Virus record (IMG/VR): IMGVR_UViG_3300020228_000001
Location: 1-58,468 of that record
DNA: 58,468 bases
Strand: one strand, 5' to 3'
Origin: a virus
Lineage: Duplodnaviria; Caudoviricetes
Notes under the pieces: generated by a model
Seen by the model: the letters and a program-made list of their open reading frames with translations, nothing else
Databases searched by the model: none
What the model was told of the DNA's origin: nothing
Made by a program: the position numbers and the translations under genes
In this document: positions 42,485 to 49,324 of the stretch, in pieces
How the letters are laid out: every line of letters begins with the position of its first letter
Position numbering within the stretch: the first letter of the stretch is position 1

Positions 42485-42772
42485 TCAGATCCCCGTGTAT
42501 TCCGGCCAGCCGTATTTTTTCAGGTTAGCATTGTTTTGCGCTACAGTCTCCGCAAAATCGATATGAGGGAAAGCCTCATAATAGCCGTTGGGCAGCTCCG
42601 CCCTGGCGTTGAGCTTGGTGGAAAACTTGCCGTCTTTTGTGGCCGGATTGTAGAGGAGCGTGATAGATCGATCCGCCTTCAGCCTGCGGTAATTGATGGT
42701 GCGGTCTTTCGCCTCGGCTGACAGCATCGCTTCAATGTACCTCTCTTCTGAGAGCAGTGCTGTGGTGATCAT
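42485..42772 (-). CDS. Hypothetical protein
   Basis: ATGA-coupled within the tail operon. Confidence 0.5.
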   Translation of the reverse strand: MITTALLSEERYIEAMLSAEAKDRTINYRRLKADRSITLLYNPATKDGKFSTKLNARAELPNGYYEAFPHIDFAETVAQNNANLKKYGWPEYTGI

Positions 42773-43998
42773 ACGAGGAAAACTCCCGGATACTTCTGCA
42801 CCACAGAATCATCCTGATCTATGGCATTCCTGTAGTTGGAGTAGAAATTCATGATATCCTGGTCGCCTGATGGCTTGTTAACGCCCAGGAAGTTGGTAGT
42901 CACATCAAGCGAGCTGACGAACCCGCCCTCCGCCGAGATATCGACTACCCGGCGCGTTACCAGGCCCATTACGGCGCCCATCTCGGCCTCTTCTACGCCA
43001 TCGCACTTGACGGGGGGCATCTGTCCGTTCCATGGCCGATAAGCTACCTTGCTGAGCAGGCCGGGGGCTTTGCCAACTACCTTGACCGTTGGCACGTCTT
43101 TGTATTGGCGATACCACTCCAGGAGCTTGTCTGCGACTTCCTGGCATTTCGCCTGGTCTGCGTTAGGCAGCACGACGGGCGGAGCTTTGAGCAGGCCGTA
43201 AGACTGGATCTCCCAATCATTGTCGGGCTCTGCGAAGGCATGAATCAGGTTGTGGGTCTTGCCCTCCCACAGATCCTCGGGTGCACCCCCATAGACATCG
43301 ACGTGATTGCAGTAGCCCACCATATTGGTGGCGTTGCTGCCTCTCAGGATTGAGCCGGTCAGGTTGGAGAAGCCGCGCAGGTTCGTAGCCGGGCAGAACC
43401 AGAACTCATCGTTTTCATCAAAGAAATAGATGGACTCCGCCCAGCAGGAAACGGTGTATAGGGCCGTGTCGAAGTCTATTCCCTTGTCAAGCGTCGGGTT
43501 GACATCATCTGTGGTGTTCTTGGATGGCATGATGTGCCGGACGCCAGTATAGCTGAAATCGTCTAGCAGATCGTTGACAATCGTGGTTATGGGCGTCCCT
43601 GTTGCCCAGATCCTGGGGTTGATCCTGGCCGTCATCCCACCCTCTGAGCAAGACCCCTCGATCTTTAGGAAAAGCTCGTCGCACTCACATTTTTGAATTT
43701 CGCCACTGCACACGTTGATGGTTTTGGTTGATGTCGAATCGCACCCCAATTTGCTGACGCGGACCTGTAAAGATACTCGCTTTTTTGGAGCTGTCTTGAA
43801 ATTGCCCAATTCTTCCTCGGTGATCTCCTCAATACTTTTTGGTGCAAAGCTCCCAAAGAATTGCCCGCTTGGATTGCACAAAACAATATCATACTTGCCA
43901 GGATCTTTGCTGCTATTGCCCGTCTGTTCCATGTGGCAAGTGAGGAAATATCGAGACACATCAGTGCCATCTAGTATTAATATTGGAGTAATATGCAT
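42769..43998 (-). CDS. Baseplate hub (gpD/gp27-like)
   Basis: 409 aa between tape measure and spike genes; FFDEN..FWF and N.V.VYG motifs. Confidence 0.6.
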   Translation of the reverse strand: MHITPILILDGTDVSRYFLTCHMEQTGNSSKDPGKYDIVLCNPSGQFFGSFAPKSIEEITEEELGNFKTAPKKRVSLQVRVSKLGCDSTSTKTINVCSGEIQKCECDELFLKIEGSCSEGGMTARINPRIWATGTPITTIVNDLLDDFSYTGVRHIMPSKNTTDDVNPTLDKGIDFDTALYTVSCWAESIYFFDENDEFWFCPATNLRGFSNLTGSILRGSNATNMVGYCNHVDVYGGAPEDLWEGKTHNLIHAFAEPDNDWEIQSYGLLKAPPVVLPNADQAKCQEVADKLLEWYRQYKDVPTVKVVGKAPGLLSKVAYRPWNGQMPPVKCDGVEEAEMGAVMGLVTRRVVDISAEGGFVSSLDVTTNFLGVNKPSGDQDIMNFYSNYRNAIDQDDSVVQKYPGVFLV

Positions 43999-44040: not shown

Positions 44041-44050
44041 TGATTATTTG

Positions 44051-44150
44051 TCCATACCACACTTTACAGGACCAAACCAGACATCACATCGCCGCACTTC
44101 ATCGCACCTTGCCTGACAATACTTCACCCCACATTACCAAACCATATCGT
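44051..44150 (-). ncRNA. Pentamer array B: 20 NN-(GGY-like) units, putative guide RNA
   Basis: Minus strand: AC GAT AT GGT TT GGT AA TGT GG GGT GA AGT AT TGT CA GGC AA GGT GC GAT GA AGT GC GGC GA TGT GA TGT CT GGT TT GGT CC TGT AA AGT GT GGT AT GGA. Confidence 0.75.
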
Positions 44151-44152
44151 AG

Positions 44153-44178
44153 ATTCCGCTCTCTTTCGGGAGCGGGAT
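44153..44178. other. Hairpin separating the two pentamer arrays
   Basis: Minus strand ATCCCGCTCCC-GAAA-GAGAGCGGAAT (9/11 pairs, GNRA loop); on the plus strand 11/11 pairs with two G-U. Confidence 0.7.
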
Positions 44179-44179
44179 A

Positions 44180-44249
44180 ACCATACTTTACCTTGCTTCA
44201 CCAGACTTTGCCTGACCAGACCGCGCCTCACCGAACCTCACCGGACCGC
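44180..44249 (-). ncRNA. Pentamer array A: 14 NN-(GGY-like) units, putative guide RNA
   Basis: Minus strand: GC GGT CC GGT GA GGT TC GGT GA GGC GC GGT CT GGT CA GGC AA AGT CT GGT GA AGC AA GGT AA AGT AT GGT; begins immediately after the nuclease stop codon. Confidence 0.8.
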
Positions 44250-44546
44250 TCACTTGAGCAGGATTTCGGTCAGTCTTGTCGAAAGCCTTTCGGGATCGTT
44301 GATCAGTTCATGTGATAGCCGGTAGACTTTCCAACCTTCCAATTTCAGGCATTTGGTCCTAAACCAATCTCTTTTTCTGGATTTGCTTGAATCATGACAA
44401 GGACCGTCCGCTTCAAGGACAATGTTCGGACTTAGTACAAAGTCCAACACAAAGCCGCTTGTTGTCGGATATTGTTCAACGAATTCAATTCCTTTGGATT
44501 TTAGCAAATCGAAAACGATCTGCTCTAAGTCGGTTCGCTCGTACAA
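44250..44546 (-). CDS. DUF559/Vsr-like PD-(D/E)xK endonuclease
   Basis: E.....L...G..F..QY...F..DF.....LEADG..H......RD..R...L...GW.V.R pattern; TTG start after GAGGT. Confidence 0.8.
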   Translation of the reverse strand: MYERTDLEQIVFDLLKSKGIEFVEQYPTTSGFVLDFVLSPNIVLEADGPCHDSSKSRKRDWFRTKCLKLEGWKVYRLSHELINDPERLSTRLTEILLK

Positions 44547-45127
44547 GGCGAAACCTCTTCGATCCTACTAACGGTGAACTGCCCGAAGAGCGGCCTGAAA
44601 TCACCGATACCGCCGCGCTTGCCCGCATTTTCGAGGATGCTCTGAATAATCTCTGGGCCCTCGTTTGCCGGATTCAGGAAGACGGGATCAACCACCCGGA
44701 TTCTGAAGATGCAAGACCACTTGTCGAACCTTGGCCGGTTCGCTATTACTCGCGCCTTTCCGATTACTACCGGACGGCTGTCTATTGTCCATTTCTCATA
44801 GATTAGCTTTGGATCATCTGGTTCGATTTCCAAGCCGGAATATACCAACTTCTTGAAAGTGGCTTTGCCTTTGCCACCCACCTTCTTGTCTGCTGCGCCC
44901 GTTCTGATTGTGTCCAGTAGCACCAGACTCGGCAGAACGATTTCGCCCCTTTCGTTCTTGTAAAGTCCTGATTCTGCCTGAATGTCTGAAGGCGGATGAG
45001 ATACGCCCTTCTGCCTCCATTCTTCGGAGACACGCATCGATTCTACGGGATTGTGCATCAGTAGTGGCTTTTTCCCAGTTATCTCGATCTCAAACACTTT
45101 TTCGATAGGCTCTAGTTCTATCTTCAC
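44525..45127 (-). CDS. Stand-alone Cas7/RAMP-like protein (Vipr-like)
   Basis: N-terminal EIEITGKKPLLMHN strand, LY...G.IVLP, RPRF..W and C-terminal Gly-rich loop AGKRGGIGDFRPLFGQF; likely GTG start at 45127 after GGTGA. Confidence 0.7.
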   Translation of the reverse strand: MKIELEPIEKVFEIEITGKKPLLMHNPVESMRVSEEWRQKGVSHPPSDIQAESGLYKNERGEIVLPSLVLLDTIRTGAADKKVGGKGKATFKKLVYSGLEIEPDDPKLIYEKWTIDSRPVVIGKARVIANRPRFDKWSCIFRIRVVDPVFLNPANEGPEIIQSILENAGKRGGIGDFRPLFGQFTVSRIEEVSPCTSEPT

Positions 45128-45140
45128 AAACTCACCGAAA

Positions 45141-45210
45141 GCTAATACTACGCACCAGTATATAAGCATACTGATCTAATAGCATCATTGAACGGTTAGC
45201 TATTTAAACT
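45141..45210. promoter_or_regulatory. Divergent TATA promoters of the RAMP operon and its RHH gene
   Basis: Leftward TTATATA (45159-45165); rightward TTTAAA (45203-45208) ~22 nt before the ATG at 45230. Confidence 0.65.
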
Positions 45211-45229: not shown

Positions 45230-45385
45230 ATGGCGCGAACCACGTTAACTCTTTCCGACCCAATAATGCACACGCTGCGATCCCATGCCGCTAAGAGTAA
45301 GAACAGCTCCAAGGCGCAAAGCGAAGTTGTTGAGGACGCTTTGAAGGAATATTTCGAGAAGTACAAGATCACAATCGAGAGCTGA
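45230..45385 (+). CDS. RHH/CopG-like regulator
   Basis: Manual translation MARTTLTLSDPIMHTLRSHAAKSKNSSKAQSEVVEDALKEYF; not in the ORF track. Confidence 0.7.
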   Translation: MARTTLTLSDPIMHTLRSHAAKSKNSSKAQSEVVEDALKEYFEKYKITIES

Positions 45386-45386
45386 T

Positions 45387-45860
45387 CTAATCTCCAGAAT
45401 TCGCTTCCAGCAAACTTATTTCTACGCTGTGATACCAGTCCTTAGCGCCCTTGGTCTGCACAATCTCCTTTTTCTGGACGTATGTGCAGAGCCCTTCTGG
45501 GAAGAGTGCAGAGTAGAATTTCTTAGGCCCGGCCAGCAGCCCCTTGATAGACTTCAGGTTATCGCTTATGTCTCCATCCGTCCCCTTCAAGCTGTTATAT
45601 TTCACCAGGATGCTCCACAGGCCGTCTGGGATGGTGCATTGCGTGAGCGGCTTCTGGCCCACAGTCTTGTGGATGACTATCTCGAACTCCTGGCTGTACC
45701 GGATCTCCAGCGGATTGGGCTGCGAGATGTCTGGATCGTTCATATCCCGGACCCCCAGCTCGATGCCGTGAATCTTGACATGGAAAGCGGAATCGACAAG
45801 CGAGATAGTGGCGGCCATCTTCTCGCTGCCGAGGCTTCGTAGGATATCTGAAACCGACAT
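45387..45860 (-). CDS. Tail/baseplate protein (tube initiator-like)
   Basis: First co-oriented gene after the tape measure; H.TVG..P..Q and ISLLE C-terminus. Confidence 0.5.
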   Translation of the reverse strand: MSVSDILRSLGSEKMAATISLVDSAFHVKIHGIELGVRDMNDPDISQPNPLEIRYSQEFEIVIHKTVGQKPLTQCTIPDGLWSILVKYNSLKGTDGDISDNLKSIKGLLAGPKKFYSALFPEGLCTYVQKKEIVQTKGAKDWYHSVEISLLEANSGD

Positions 45861-45903: not shown

Positions 45904-46320
45904 TTGAGCATGCTACGAAAGATCTTGATTGTGCTATGCCTGCTTACGTGCCTGGGCGGGCTCTGTCTTGCCGCAGATACGAACAACAGCACAGACTTGA
46001 ATCATGCTTCCGCATTGAAGGCGTATGATCAGGGCCTGGCCTATGACAGTCTCGGACAGATAGCGAATGCGACGGGTGCCTATCGCCACGCGGTTGGACT
46101 AGATCCTAAGTTTGCTGAAGCTTGGTATAGTCTGGGACTGACCTTATATGCTGTTTCTGGCAAGTTCAACACTTACGACGAAGCCATCGGGTGTTTTGGG
46201 AAGGCCGTGGCGCTAAATTCGAGTTTAGATGTCTGGGATATCGGAAACCGAGACGATCCTCCCATGACTGTCAATTCTAAAGAGGATTGGGAAAATTACA
46301 AATTGCTTCATGCGCTCTGA
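45904..46320 (+). CDS. Secreted TPR-repeat protein (moron)
   Basis: Signal peptide plus AVGLDPKFAEAWYSLG...YDEAIGCFGKAV TPR motifs; counter-oriented. Confidence 0.75.
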   Translation: MSMLRKILIVLCLLTCLGGLCLAADTNNSTDLNHASALKAYDQGLAYDSLGQIANATGAYRHAVGLDPKFAEAWYSLGLTLYAVSGKFNTYDEAIGCFGKAVALNSSLDVWDIGNRDDPPMTVNSKEDWENYKLLHAL

Positions 46321-46328
46321 GGAGGGGT

Positions 46329-48812
46329 TTATCCCCTCAGATAACCAATCCCGCGCGTGCTCCCATTTTCCATTTTGTTTCTCAGGGCAAAGAGCAATTT
46401 ATCAGCACCCTCGTTTCCGATTCTGGAAATAATCTGGTCAATGTCTGCGGTTTTTTCGACCTTTTCAATGACGACTGTCAGGGATATGGGCGCATGAATT
46501 GTCTGCCCGCCGCCTGGACCAGGCGCGCCAGAAAACATCCTATTGATCTTTCCCAAGGTGGTCTCTCCTCCGACAACCACATCTGCTGGATTGACTTGCT
46601 CTCCTTGGTGCCCGATTATAGCACCGGAGCCGATGATGGATCCGCCCTCTGCCATACCATATAATCCACCACCTGGCATCCACCAGGGCCGCCATGTGGT
46701 TTGCGCTGCTATGTACTCGCCCTTATCTGCCTTAACAGATTCATATTTCTTGGCGGTATTGTCCACATATGCGCTCCCTGCCTCGTTGACCGTGGCAGCA
46801 ACTGCCTTTATCGAGAGCTGCGTGATCAAAGCATTGATCGCCCTCGTGAGTTCTGTGACGCCCGGAAGCCCATCGATAAAGCTCTTGGGCGCATTGTCGT
46901 AAGCTTCTTTGGCCCTTAGCAACGAGTCCGGCACGTCCTCCTTGCGTTGGTTTCCCCCGGTGTACCACCCAGCAGGTGAGTCTGGGCGGCTCTCTTTCCA
47001 CGTCAGGCCTGCTGCCTTTTCGGCCTTCTTCAGATCGGCTTCTTTTTCGCGTTTCGTGATGCCGAGGCCGTCACGGAGCCAGGCGAGGCCGCCTTTTATG
47101 GTATCAAGCAGCCAGGTGAAGAAATCCACCATCTTCTGCCAGATCACGACACCGTAATTGATGAGCTTATTCAGGATATTGCTGTTGTTCCACAGCTTCC
47201 TGAGCATATCGAAGATGAAGGCAATCATCTTGAAGAGCGGCGAATTGGCAACGATCCCCTCCAAAGCCACCTTGAGCACGCCGCCCACGCCACCGGACTT
47301 GTATGCCTTGCCGAGTGTGCCCAGCAGGTCCTCGATCGCCTTCTTTCCGTCTGCAATCGCAGCAAAAACGCCTTTTCCGATGCTCGACTCCGAGAACATC
47401 TTCCAGGCTTTCGAAACTAGCCCAAACCTTTTCTCAAGCACGTAGAGTACTGCAATCAGGCCCACTACGGCCATGATAGCAATTCCCAGCGGATTGGCAC
47501 TCATCGCCGCGTTGAGAATCCACTGAGCAGCCGCCATGAGCTTGGTAACTATGCCTGCTTTCGATATCAGGCCGATAACCGTCATGAGGCCAGGTATGAG
47601 CGAGCCGACCATGGAGACCATCACGAGCCCTGCAGATGCAGCCCCGAGCAGCACCGCCCCCCATCCCATGGCCTTACCGAGCCCTGGGATCTTGCCTATG
47701 ATGTCAGAGAGCTTGATGAAGCCGCCCAGGACGCTGTTGAGCGCAGGTAGCACAGCATCTCCCATAGCTGCCGTTGTGGCGGTAAGCCGCTTGCTAAGGA
47801 CCTCATCCGGCCTGGCGGCAACTGCGCCGGCGAGCTGCTTATCATCCGGTGCCTCGGTGCCGAGCCTTGCCAACCTGGCTGTTGCCGAGGTGGTTGAGAA
47901 TCCGAGGCCAAAGATATCATCAAACTTGGCTGCGGAATCTCCTGAGAGCTGGGGCGCAGAGATCTCTGAGGCGAGCTGCTCTGCGGAAGCGATGCCTTTT
48001 TTCTGGAGCATCTCCTGGTTGGCAAAGAAGTACTTCTCTATATCCTCTGTTGCCTTCTGAGCGGCTTTCTGGCCCATGCCCTTGTTCTTGCTGAGCACTG
48101 TCTGGAAGGTGCCCATCCGGGAGTCTCGGCCCGCGGACCAGTCGTCTCCCTGGGCAGACTCTATCCACTTCTCGGCTCCGGCCTTGTCGGGCAGCTTGCG
48201 GGCCATTAGCCTGCTGTCTAGGGTGGACTTGATGTAATTCTGAGAATGCTTCGATGATAGGGCCGCTGCTGCCGCCATTCCGACCATAGCTGCCGCTGCG
48301 ACGGTAAGGGCGGTGCGGTACTGGACCAGATTGGCAGAGGCGTTCTGCAGCCACCCCGTAAAGCCGGTCCCACTGCCGGCCAGGAAGCCGGACAGTGAGG
48401 ACTTGAGAGAGGCTACGCCCAGGTGCATGGCGCCGGATGTGCCCCAGAAAGCTGCCAGAGTCTTTTGACGCTGGAACTCTGCGGACACCCTGCCCAGCGA
48501 GGATACCAGGCCCGGCCCGATCGCCCGGCCAGCGTTCGCCACGGCTCCGAGGGCCTGCTGGTACTGAGCGAGCGGTGCGACTGCTTTTGATGTCAGGGCT
48601 CCGCCTAGTGCGGACAGATCCTTCATGGCCCCGGCATGAGCGGCGCTGGCGGCTACGGACGCTCTGCGGGCCTGCTCGAAACCGGATGAATCGATCCCTA
48701 GCTTTATCTTGGAATTATTTAGAAGAGCGTCCCTTTGTTTGCGGATCTCTACGAGGCGGTTTCCTATGCCATCTACGACATCGAGCTTGATTGTGACCTG
48801 TCTTTCCGTCAT
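46329..48812 (-). CDS. Tape measure protein
   Basis: 827 aa, Ala/Gly-rich, AAQWILNAAMSANPLG motif; after the tail chaperones. Confidence 0.88.
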   Translation of the reverse strand: MTERQVTIKLDVVDGIGNRLVEIRKQRDALLNNSKIKLGIDSSGFEQARRASVAASAAHAGAMKDLSALGGALTSKAVAPLAQYQQALGAVANAGRAIGPGLVSSLGRVSAEFQRQKTLAAFWGTSGAMHLGVASLKSSLSGFLAGSGTGFTGWLQNASANLVQYRTALTVAAAAMVGMAAAAALSSKHSQNYIKSTLDSRLMARKLPDKAGAEKWIESAQGDDWSAGRDSRMGTFQTVLSKNKGMGQKAAQKATEDIEKYFFANQEMLQKKGIASAEQLASEISAPQLSGDSAAKFDDIFGLGFSTTSATARLARLGTEAPDDKQLAGAVAARPDEVLSKRLTATTAAMGDAVLPALNSVLGGFIKLSDIIGKIPGLGKAMGWGAVLLGAASAGLVMVSMVGSLIPGLMTVIGLISKAGIVTKLMAAAQWILNAAMSANPLGIAIMAVVGLIAVLYVLEKRFGLVSKAWKMFSESSIGKGVFAAIADGKKAIEDLLGTLGKAYKSGGVGGVLKVALEGIVANSPLFKMIAFIFDMLRKLWNNSNILNKLINYGVVIWQKMVDFFTWLLDTIKGGLAWLRDGLGITKREKEADLKKAEKAAGLTWKESRPDSPAGWYTGGNQRKEDVPDSLLRAKEAYDNAPKSFIDGLPGVTELTRAINALITQLSIKAVAATVNEAGSAYVDNTAKKYESVKADKGEYIAAQTTWRPWWMPGGGLYGMAEGGSIIGSGAIIGHQGEQVNPADVVVGGETTLGKINRMFSGAPGPGGGQTIHAPISLTVVIEKVEKTADIDQIISRIGNEGADKLLFALRNKMENGSTRGIGYLRG

Positions 48813-49324
48813 TTAACCACCGGAATTATCCACTGATGGACGTTAAGCCTTCTACCATCCTCACTTTCTGTCTTCCCACATATCAGGCAGGTGCGGTCAA
48901 AAAATTCCCGAACCCTCTCCCTAAACTCGTGATTGAATTTTGGACAATATGGTTCAAAGCTTGCCCCGCCCCACCAACATGGGCTTTGCTCTCCAGAATG
49001 TGCAATGGAGTTCTTCAGTTTTGCTTCGGGTGTGTGGTGTTTTCCATATCTAATTGAAAGTGGACCAGTCTTTCCGTACTTGGCATTTTTCTCTCCTCGA
49101 TTCGCCGCAGAAATCTTGGCCCGCGTTTCGGGTGATAAGTGTTTCCCCCAATTGACATGTTTTTCACCAGAGTTGCTGGCAGATAGTTTAGCACGTGTTT
49201 CTTCTGTGTGATGCCTCCCAAACATCGGATGTGCTGCCCCAGACGCGCACCCCAACCCCAATTTCTTCCGTGTTGACGAGAGTTTTGCTTTCGATTCCGC
49301 ACTCATATGCTGCCCCTTTCTCAT
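48809..49324 (-). pseudogene. NUMOD3-repeat homing endonuclease truncated within the HNH motif
   Basis: H.S/T.E.(R/K).K.S repeats; CLICG..LNVH followed by an unrelated 8-aa tail and stop. Confidence 0.65.

Follow-up and report, generated by a model that had tools for sequence, protein, structure and literature searches.

The systems named VIPR (Viral Interference Programmable Repeat) were described in 2026 bioRxiv preprints (10.64898/2026.04.26.720920, 10.64898/2026.04.26.720927, 10.64898/2026.10.15.759431, 10.64898/2026.10.21.760802). As their main texts have it, Vipr is a RAMP protein of ~20 kDa that polymerises on a guide, the vrRNA, with one protomer per GGY/NN pentamer (10.64898/2026.04.26.720920, 10.64898/2026.04.26.720927). 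The vrRNA consists of these GGY/NN pentamers plus a 3′ tail, its tract being made of tandem YNNGG/GGYNN pentamers (9–16, up to ~30) beside vipr on the same strand (10.64898/2026.04.26.720920). The NN dinucleotides pair with double-stranded DNA, every third target base being skipped, which gives an R-loop-like triplex and a silenced target (10.64898/2026.04.26.720920, 10.64898/2026.04.26.720927); the complex silences rival mobile elements (10.64898/2026.04.26.720920). Here, we analyse a phage genome that is complete at 58,468 bp and bounded by direct terminal repeats (Caudoviricetes; IMG/VR record IMGVR_UViG_3300020228_000001; the window in what follows), whose minus strand carries nearly all genes, and focus on a 98-aa DUF559-family nuclease gene that lies between a RAMP gene and two pentamer arrays. 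We find this gene to be a conserved-synteny accessory of vipr throughout one VIPR clade and discuss it as a candidate DNA-cutting effector.

The locus is a phage-borne VIPR system: what a sequence-only reading of the same DNA had called a RAMP gene and guide arrays are Vipr and its vrRNAs. A RAMP-fold Vipr homologue, pentamer arrays on the same strand and a computational NN target match under the 1-nt-skip code are all present. The RAMP label is borne out by an AlphaFold model (pLDDT 93.9) whose best Foldseek matches in the PDB are type VII Cas7 and type III Csm3/Cmr4 (E 6e-7 and weaker, TM ~0.5). Without a Pfam match, the vipr ORF (open reading frame) belongs to phrog_4652 (E 4.7e-21), carries the conserved G-rich C-terminal motif GxxGGIGDFRPxFG and has 1429 representative relatives at E ≤0.001. 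Homologues adjoin period-5 arrays in very distant phages, namely in two IMG/VR loci (80% identity; L001 and L002, loci and related genomes being numbered in this way below), in Citrobacter phage Mijalis (29%) and in Pseudomonas phage LESphi2 (28%).

The arrays themselves stand out clearly, with a lag-5 autocorrelation of 0.45–0.52 compared to 0.21–0.29 at lags other than multiples of 5. Of all 70-nt windows in the entire 58 kb, the top 15 by period-5 signal fall in 44046–44280, and an NNGGY array finder run over both strands of the whole window returns these two arrays only. The sequence-only reading had array A starting right after the nuclease stop codon, and so it does: the first pentamer, GCGGT, occupies 44249–44245, beginning one base past the stop. 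Arrays lie on the vipr strand in 88/94 related loci and on the opposite strand in 0. A TRAP-like or nucleocapsid-like RNA-binding ring, once considered for the 5-nt period, is superseded by the VIPR identification.

How does this locus compare to the described types? Seven VIPR types with accessory genes vap1-6 have been distinguished, type II (Escherichia phage SUSP1, Pseudomonas fulva prophage) carrying a DNA-binding vap1 (10.64898/2026.04.26.720920), and binding and silencing by the ribonucleoprotein have been shown for SUSP1 and P. fulva only (10.64898/2026.04.26.720920, 10.64898/2026.04.26.720927). With type II, the locus shares a ~20 kDa RAMP Vipr, GGY/NN vrRNAs, apparently with a tail, and its encoding by a phage (10.64898/2026.04.26.720920, 10.64898/2026.04.26.720927, 10.64898/2026.10.15.759431), as well as guides against rival mobile elements, the 1-nt-skip code with the skipped base at the wobble position, and own sequences that match less. 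It differs in its accessory, a DUF559 nuclease in place of the predicted DNA-binding vap1; in its Vipr, which is merely 28% identical to the SUSP1 protein (tblastn, phage phiSUSP1 28486–29076, E 4e-6); in its likely tail, a simple GAAA-loop hairpin instead of a pseudoknot; and in its targets, which in type II are a satellite recombinase or a lysogeny regulator and here a late structural gene of sibling phages. As in types III–V, where a nuclease or helicase is predicted, VIPR is accompanied here by an accessory gene for a putative DNA-acting enzyme. However, the main text of the defining preprint ascribes predicted nucleases only to types III and V, which are host-encoded, antiviral and enriched in defence islands, and the only nuclease domain named there, in a figure legend, is HNH (10.64898/2026.04.26.720920), whereas the nuclease here is of the DUF559/Vsr fold and viral: it sits in a complete phage genome, and 185,579 prokaryote species genomes yielded one close relative, on a 2.5-kb contig carrying phage tail genes. 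A companion preprint states that accessory nucleases exist and leaves their role open (10.64898/2026.04.26.720927).

The RAMP-plus-pentamer system itself is already known as VIPR. What appears to be new is a DUF559/Vsr-fold VIPR accessory gene, together with the insertion-site and neighbour-gene targeting pattern described below. 'DUF559' and 'Vsr' are absent from the main texts of the VIPR preprints, the supplementary vap1-6 definitions of which may list this gene, and a full-text literature search for 'DUF559' with 'RAMP' returned unrelated work only.

A core-only nuclease linked to vipr

That the gene encodes a DUF559/Vsr-like nuclease, as had been read from the sequence, is confirmed at several levels. 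Its 98-aa ORF opens with TTG and closes with TGA at 44252–44250; the TTG start is plausible because two homologues (L080, MYQRT..; L079, MSYERT..) have an ATG at the aligned position. Both Pfam MTES_1575 (E 1.2e-9, 38.6 bits, cut-off 38.2) and Pfam DUF559 (E 1.8e-9, 37.9 bits, cut-off 20.6) match above their cut-offs, and the D...E.DG..H motif is present as D35, E45, D47, G48 and H51. These residues are invariant in 35/35 distinct VIPR-linked DUF559 copies, all of which match MTES_1575 and 32/35 of which match DUF559. Pfam Vsr is not matched by the window protein at E ≤0.1, and by one of the 35 relatives at 3e-4.

The structural model (pLDDT 93.7) has as its closest Foldseek match a homing endonuclease's catalytic domain, that of I-Bth0305I (3r3p, TM 0.81). 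It further resembles a Neisseria DUF559 protein and DNA-bound Vsr (1cw0, query-normalised TMq 0.80), with a TM of 0.67 to 3hrl, and 3hrl and 3r3p are recovered by PDB profile matches as well. This fold family comprises DNA endonucleases (Vsr, I-Bth0305I, PvuRts1I). With the very-short-patch repair endonuclease Vsr (1cw0, 1vsr), the protein shares fold and core motif, but it lacks a Pfam Vsr match and is much shorter (98 aa as compared to chains of 155 and 134 residues). The alignment to the 97–98-residue chains of 3r3p covers 95 columns; the protein is a catalytic core alone, with neither an extra domain nor a DNA-recognition domain of its own.

Is the nuclease a regular component of VIPR loci? 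Among 149 loci with Vipr, of which 69 are viral and 80 the best of 161 metagenomic ones, 50 contain a DUF559 homologue, on the vipr strand every time and nearly always just downstream of vipr (gap −82 to +494 nt), the exceptions being L012, where it is directly upstream, and L068, where it is 990 nt downstream. We built a Vipr tree from distinct sequences, dropping 11/105 with a match of <150 residues; its 95 rows comprise 36 with DUF559, 44 without and 15 from loci too short to tell. The window's clade (SH-aLRT 95) has DUF559 in 22/23 members, and two further clades in 6/6 and 2/3 (the third locus of the latter being too short to assess). Mapped onto the tree, the DUF559 label changes 6 times as compared to a mean of 26.4 after shuffling, with 0/500 shuffles as low. 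Presence also falls as identity to the window's Vipr falls: among assessable loci, DUF559 is found in 6/7 at ≥60%, 10/11 at 44–60%, 3/6 at 39–44%, 16/33 at 34–39% and 1/32 below 34%. DUF559 identity correlates with Vipr identity (Spearman 0.84, n=33), which reflects shared descent and not independent evidence, the rows being phylogenetically dependent.

The reverse search started from the close DUF559 subfamily with the motif E[ATV]DGPCH and led to 13 viral loci and a single genomic one. Full-length relatives (≥44% identity) reside in VIPR loci in 11/11 cases, 10 with vipr and 1, cut at the contig end, with arrays; the 3 weak partial matches are not VIPR loci. No DUF559 relative was found by tblastn in 50,697 GenBank phage records, nor by a single-protein pattern search of IMG/VR, relatives emerging solely by alignment-based search. 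Co-occurrence with the RAMP gene, which the sequence-only reading had put up for checking, is thus clearly positive: across its clade, the nuclease is a same-strand neighbour of vipr with its catalytic motif intact.

Guides, targets and a shared insertion site

The cassette of ~1.35 kb, comprising a ribbon-helix-helix (RHH) gene, vipr, the DUF559 gene and two vrRNA arrays, is inserted between a 157-aa and a 409-aa gene of the tail module (Table 1). In relatives L155–L157, L159 and L175–L179, this site is empty, and the 409-aa gene follows the 157-aa gene within a few bases. The same junction holds a cassette of the window's type in L076 and a far more divergent one (Vipr 41%, DUF559 56–58% identical), with a small zinc-ribbon ORF instead of the RHH gene, in L102, L108/L110/L111 and L174. 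Other members of the window's clade occupy different junctions, in structural modules.

We matched guides to targets by the 1-nt-skip rule of the VIPR preprints. Within its own 58-kb genome, vrRNA-B fits best in the adjoining 409-aa gene, where 27/38 bases match as compared to a maximum of 26 in 200 shuffled-unit controls. At the orthologous site of cassette-less relatives, the fit is closer, with 13/19 units in L156 and L159 and 14/19 in L175, L176 and L179; in the latter three, 14 of the first 15 units fit, all but unit 3. When the exact pattern of vrRNA-B units 4–13 (20 specified bases) was searched in all of IMG/VR, it occurred on 5 contigs, 5/5 times in the 409-aa gene of phages with an empty junction, as compared to 0 matches in IMG/VR for an equally informative 10-unit pattern of vrRNA-A. 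The exact 14-unit vrRNA-A pattern likewise gave 0 matches there. In its own genome, vrRNA-A reaches 18/28 bases at best, below the shuffled-unit mean of 18.5, and its 21/28 in L157 is at control level.

Guides of the divergent cassettes point to the same gene. The vrRNA of the DUF559-type cassette in L108 finds a run of 12 perfect units in the window's 409-aa gene and in L157, L159 and L102, as against at most 7 units in a row in shuffled controls; in L110, the guide's own phage, this stretch is interrupted. For the L102 guide the signal is weaker: 12–13/20 units in the window, L156, L157 and L110 vs 10/20 in its own gene, with 8/20 in L159. The skipped base corresponds to codon position 3 in all three guide–target sets examined. 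For each of the three cassettes at this junction (window, L102, L108), then, the guide fits the neighbouring gene, its own copy worse than those of rivals. This better fit to rivals' copies than to own alleles marks these VIPRs as live weapons that sibling phages turn on one another, in line with what has been published for other clades, with the attacker's own allele mismatched. The proposal that the arrays act as DNA-binding guides agrees with the published VIPR work as well as with the target matches computed here.

Whether guides generally aim at adjacent genes was addressed by a search of each locus's own flanks. In DUF559-type loci, matches near the array were not enriched (9/37 within 600 nt vs a null of 0.20), and loci without DUF559 gave 37/119 within 600 nt vs a null of 0.18, in a test of low power given flanks of ≤3 kb and own copies that are expected to be mismatched. 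The lack of enrichment speaks against homing as a general feature, and so far, the 'target next door' pattern has been shown only for the 157-aa/409-aa junction.

What the nuclease may do

VIPR has so far been shown only to bind and silence DNA, and a conserved subtype with a 98-aa nuclease offers a concrete system in which to ask whether it also directs cutting. Our leading interpretation, to which we give about an even chance, is that the DUF559 protein is the dedicated accessory nuclease, and hence the DNA-cutting effector, of a phage-borne VIPR subtype. Since the protein is a catalytic core without a DNA-binding extension, specificity would come from the Vipr–vrRNA filament or from DNA distorted by the filament. 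The nuclease would nick or cut the rival genome held by the filament, turning silencing into destruction. Cutting would make sense for a late structural gene because mere silencing would be offset in trans by the attacker's own copy during co-infection, as cutting of the rival genome would not. In class 1 CRISPR systems, a separate nuclease acts at the bound target (Cascade recruiting Cas3; type III Csm/Cmr). Judging from the fold match, a guide-RNA-bound RAMP backbone is common to both, but the present locus has no CRISPR repeats, spacers or other cas genes, its period is 5 nt rather than 6 nt, and its code is non-contiguous. A complex prediction for Vipr and DUF559 scored 0.00, under the mark and run without controls, and so speaks neither for nor against binding.

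Several observations weigh against an effector role. The published type II silences without a nuclease (10.64898/2026.04.26.720920), and on the tree, many Vipr clades have other accessory genes or none. The closest Vipr relative, L075 (91%), keeps its arrays and tail hairpin but is missing DUF559; VIPR can therefore persist without the nuclease, although this particular Vipr has a Y at D176. Gene order varies, the arrays lying between vipr and DUF559 in 16/35 loci and downstream of DUF559 in 19/35, which would also fit a mobile gene lodging in VIPR loci. As to the guides, no target of vrRNA-A was found in its own genome or in IMG/VR, and unit 3 of vrRNA-B mismatches every candidate target. Lastly, metatranscriptome contigs (four runs of a single study) match the greater part of the locus with 100% identity and at low depth, but they may stem from DNA carry-over and do not prove transcription; gaps in single runs carry no meaning.

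Four other roles deserve consideration. DUF559 could chiefly be a mobility (homing-type) endonuclease that spreads the whole VIPR cassette and is dispensable for interference. T4 seg and mob genes are examples of free-standing phage homing endonucleases. Several features resemble these: the best structural match is the EDxHD catalytic domain of I-Bth0305I, the cassette separates conserved genes that are adjacent in relatives, the site under attack is in the neighbouring gene of those insertion-less relatives, and the carrier's allele differs. Moreover, two cassette lineages with Vipr proteins only 41% identical share one junction, and the cassette genes of L076 are closer to those of the window (Vipr 82–83%, RHH 88%) than the flanks are (62–65%), albeit in a comparison of flanking pieces of only 93 and 40 aa. 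Yet at 98 aa, the protein has no specificity domain of its own, the site match belongs to the vrRNA and not to the protein, and the nuclease is never found apart from vipr (0/11 close relatives). We consider this role unlikely, and it would merge with that of a VIPR effector if the vrRNA gave the nuclease its specificity. Rather improbable in our view is a VIPR-linked function other than that of effector, namely untargeted degradation of host or competitor DNA after VIPR has stalled a rival, or the countering of host defence: linkage and an intact active site show selection, not mechanism, but an untargeted nuclease would endanger the phage's own DNA, and no immunity partner is evident in the cassette.

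The sequence-only reading had also offered guide processing or acquisition as a role, and such action on RNA or on the locus itself, be it vrRNA maturation or the making and renewing of guide arrays, strikes us as more improbable still. DUF559 does lie directly against the arrays, which are found on either side of it in different loci, and the origin of the NN specificities does not seem to be explained in the preprint (10.64898/2026.04.26.720920). But the fold family is that of DNA endonucleases, arrays are still present in 42/44 assessable VIPR loci without DUF559, and published vrRNAs mature without a DUF559-like protein, some of them by means of hammerhead ribozymes (10.64898/2026.04.26.720920). 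Finally, the gene might be a passenger (moron), functionally unconnected to VIPR, in keeping with a variable region between tail genes and with one close relative (L075) that does without it. This is close to refuted. That DUF559 is not a passenger, as had been surmised from the sequence, is supported by its same-strand linkage across the clade (22/23 members) and its invariant catalytic residues; the reverse search ended in VIPR loci in 11/11 cases.

Effector and homing functions could be two sides of one element. As an unlikely but credible possibility, the cassette may be an RNA-guided homing element, in which Vipr and vrRNA supply the specificity for the core-only DUF559 protein. The complex would cut the siblings' 409-aa gene 60–600 nt from the empty insertion site, and recombinational repair off the attacker's genome would then pass the mismatched, and hence immune, allele on to the rival, along with the cassette beside it. 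The basis for this proposal would be the fit of the three junction cassettes' guides to the neighbouring gene, along with the two divergent lineages that share the junction. If true, RNA guidance would be linked to selfish gene spread in viruses, and the cassette would be a natural phage gene drive, its guide, cutter and resistant target allele tightly linked.

Irrespective of homing, the linkage of DUF559 to vipr suggests that some phages cut, and do not merely silence, the genes of rival phages. The parts are compact (a cassette of ~1.35 kb, a guide-binding protein of ~200 aa, a nuclease of 98 aa and guides of ~100 nt), and the cassette's natural targets are identifiable, with a built-in contrast between self and non-self. 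If cutting is guide-dependent, this would be among the smallest natural RNA-guided DNA-cleaving systems and would explain how phages can harm rivals via a structural gene, the mere silencing of which could be made good in trans.

Further features of the locus

The features of the cassette, its flanking genes and the guide-matched sites are compiled in Table 1.

Table 1. Features of the VIPR cassette and its surroundings in the window.
Feature	Position	Strand	Basis
DUF559/MTES_1575 (Vsr-fold, EDxHD-like) nuclease, candidate VIPR accessory (vap-like) effector	44250..44546	-	ORF, Pfam, invariant motif, model, Foldseek
vipr (RAMP/Cas7-like, ~200 aa)	44525..45127	-	phrog_4652, tblastn, relatives, alignment, model and Foldseek
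vrRNA-A repeat tract, 14 NNGGY units (NN = GC CC GA TC GA GC CT CA AA CT GA AA AA AT)	44180..44249	-	periodicity and array finder
Hairpin with GAAA loop, directly 3′ of array A	44156..44175	-	fold −11.5 kcal/mol, z −1.85
vrRNA-B repeat tract, ~19 units (18-19), GGY degenerate in several	44051..44145	-	periodicity and array finder
Site in own 409-aa gene, imperfect match of vrRNA-B	43658..43713	-	27/38 bases, 11/19 units, skip base = codon position 3
Site in the window's 409-aa gene matched by the vrRNA of the L108 cassette (DUF559-type)	43394..43452	+	12 consecutive perfect units
409-aa tail-module gene adjoining the cassette, target of vrRNAs from three cassettes	42769..43998	-	without Pfam or PHROG match
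Small ribbon-helix-helix gene, divergent from vipr, within the cassette	45230..45385	+	RHH_1, E 3.7e-5
157-aa conserved tail-module gene, other flank of the insertion	45387..45860	-	synteny with relatives

The ORF containing vipr is open as far as an ATG at 45169 (44525–45169, minus strand), and homologues start near a GTG at 45127; the true start is probably this GTG, judging from alignment to a 95%-identical relative (P0001), giving a protein of 200 aa as in that relative. At its 3′ end, the ORF overlaps the nuclease gene by 22 nt, as the sequence-only reading had noted. Here, the Vipr proteins of the window (44528–44548, minus strand) and of P0001 end with an extra PCTSEPT, most relatives stopping at ..EEVSA. 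As PCTSEPT is encoded by the stretch common to the start of the DUF559 gene, the overlap looks like a recent gene-boundary fusion. In L075 (3001–3830), which has two arrays and a GAAA-loop hairpin, the nearly invariant D176 of Vipr is replaced by Y, and so is F184 of the G-rich C-terminal motif.

The GAAA-loop hairpin is likely the tail of vrRNA-A, and hairpins with the same loop and differing stems also occur 3′ of the first array in L002 and L075; across these hairpins, z scores are only −1.2 to −2.3. Array B of the window is not followed by any evident hairpin. The tail seen after the first array is missing from the second one in the window (44051–44070, minus strand), in L002 (4790–4815) and in L075 (3810–3840); the second array may have a different tail or be read through into the next gene. 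The last four units of vrRNA-B in the window match no target. Rfam and tRNA scans of the window gave no matches, and a promoter and terminator scan returned 4 promoter-like sites vs 2.4 expected and 1 terminator-like site vs 1.8 expected, which is uninformative. In Citrobacter phage Mijalis (KY654690; L003, 4830–4990), an annotated 44-aa 'hypothetical protein', CPT_Mijalis043, extends across a vrRNA array with a period of 5, upstream of the Vipr homologue, and is probably a spurious coding sequence.

Upstream of vipr, cassettes of this clade carry one of two small genes: the divergent RHH gene, or a co-directional, zinc-ribbon-like ORF with two CxxC pairs (L102, L108, L174, L002, L075). The RHH gene has the same place and orientation in L076, L082, L079, L080 and L008 (64–88% identity), and the two ORFs may be alternative cassette regulators. 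The 157-aa gene was considered as a VIPR accessory and rejected, since it is a conserved part of the tail module and cassette-less relatives have it too. A 171-aa ORF (48809–49324, minus strand), just upstream of the tape-measure gene, contains NUMOD3 motifs, three in number (E 1.6e-23), which are DNA-binding modules that typify homing endonucleases, and no detected nuclease domain; in L088, L168 and L169, homologues of it lie on the opposite strand at a distance of 1–2 kb from VIPR cassettes. Between the tape-measure and 157-aa genes, a TPR-repeat ORF on the plus strand (45904–46320), whose N-terminus resembles a signal peptide, runs counter to the tail genes around it and is probably a separate moron.

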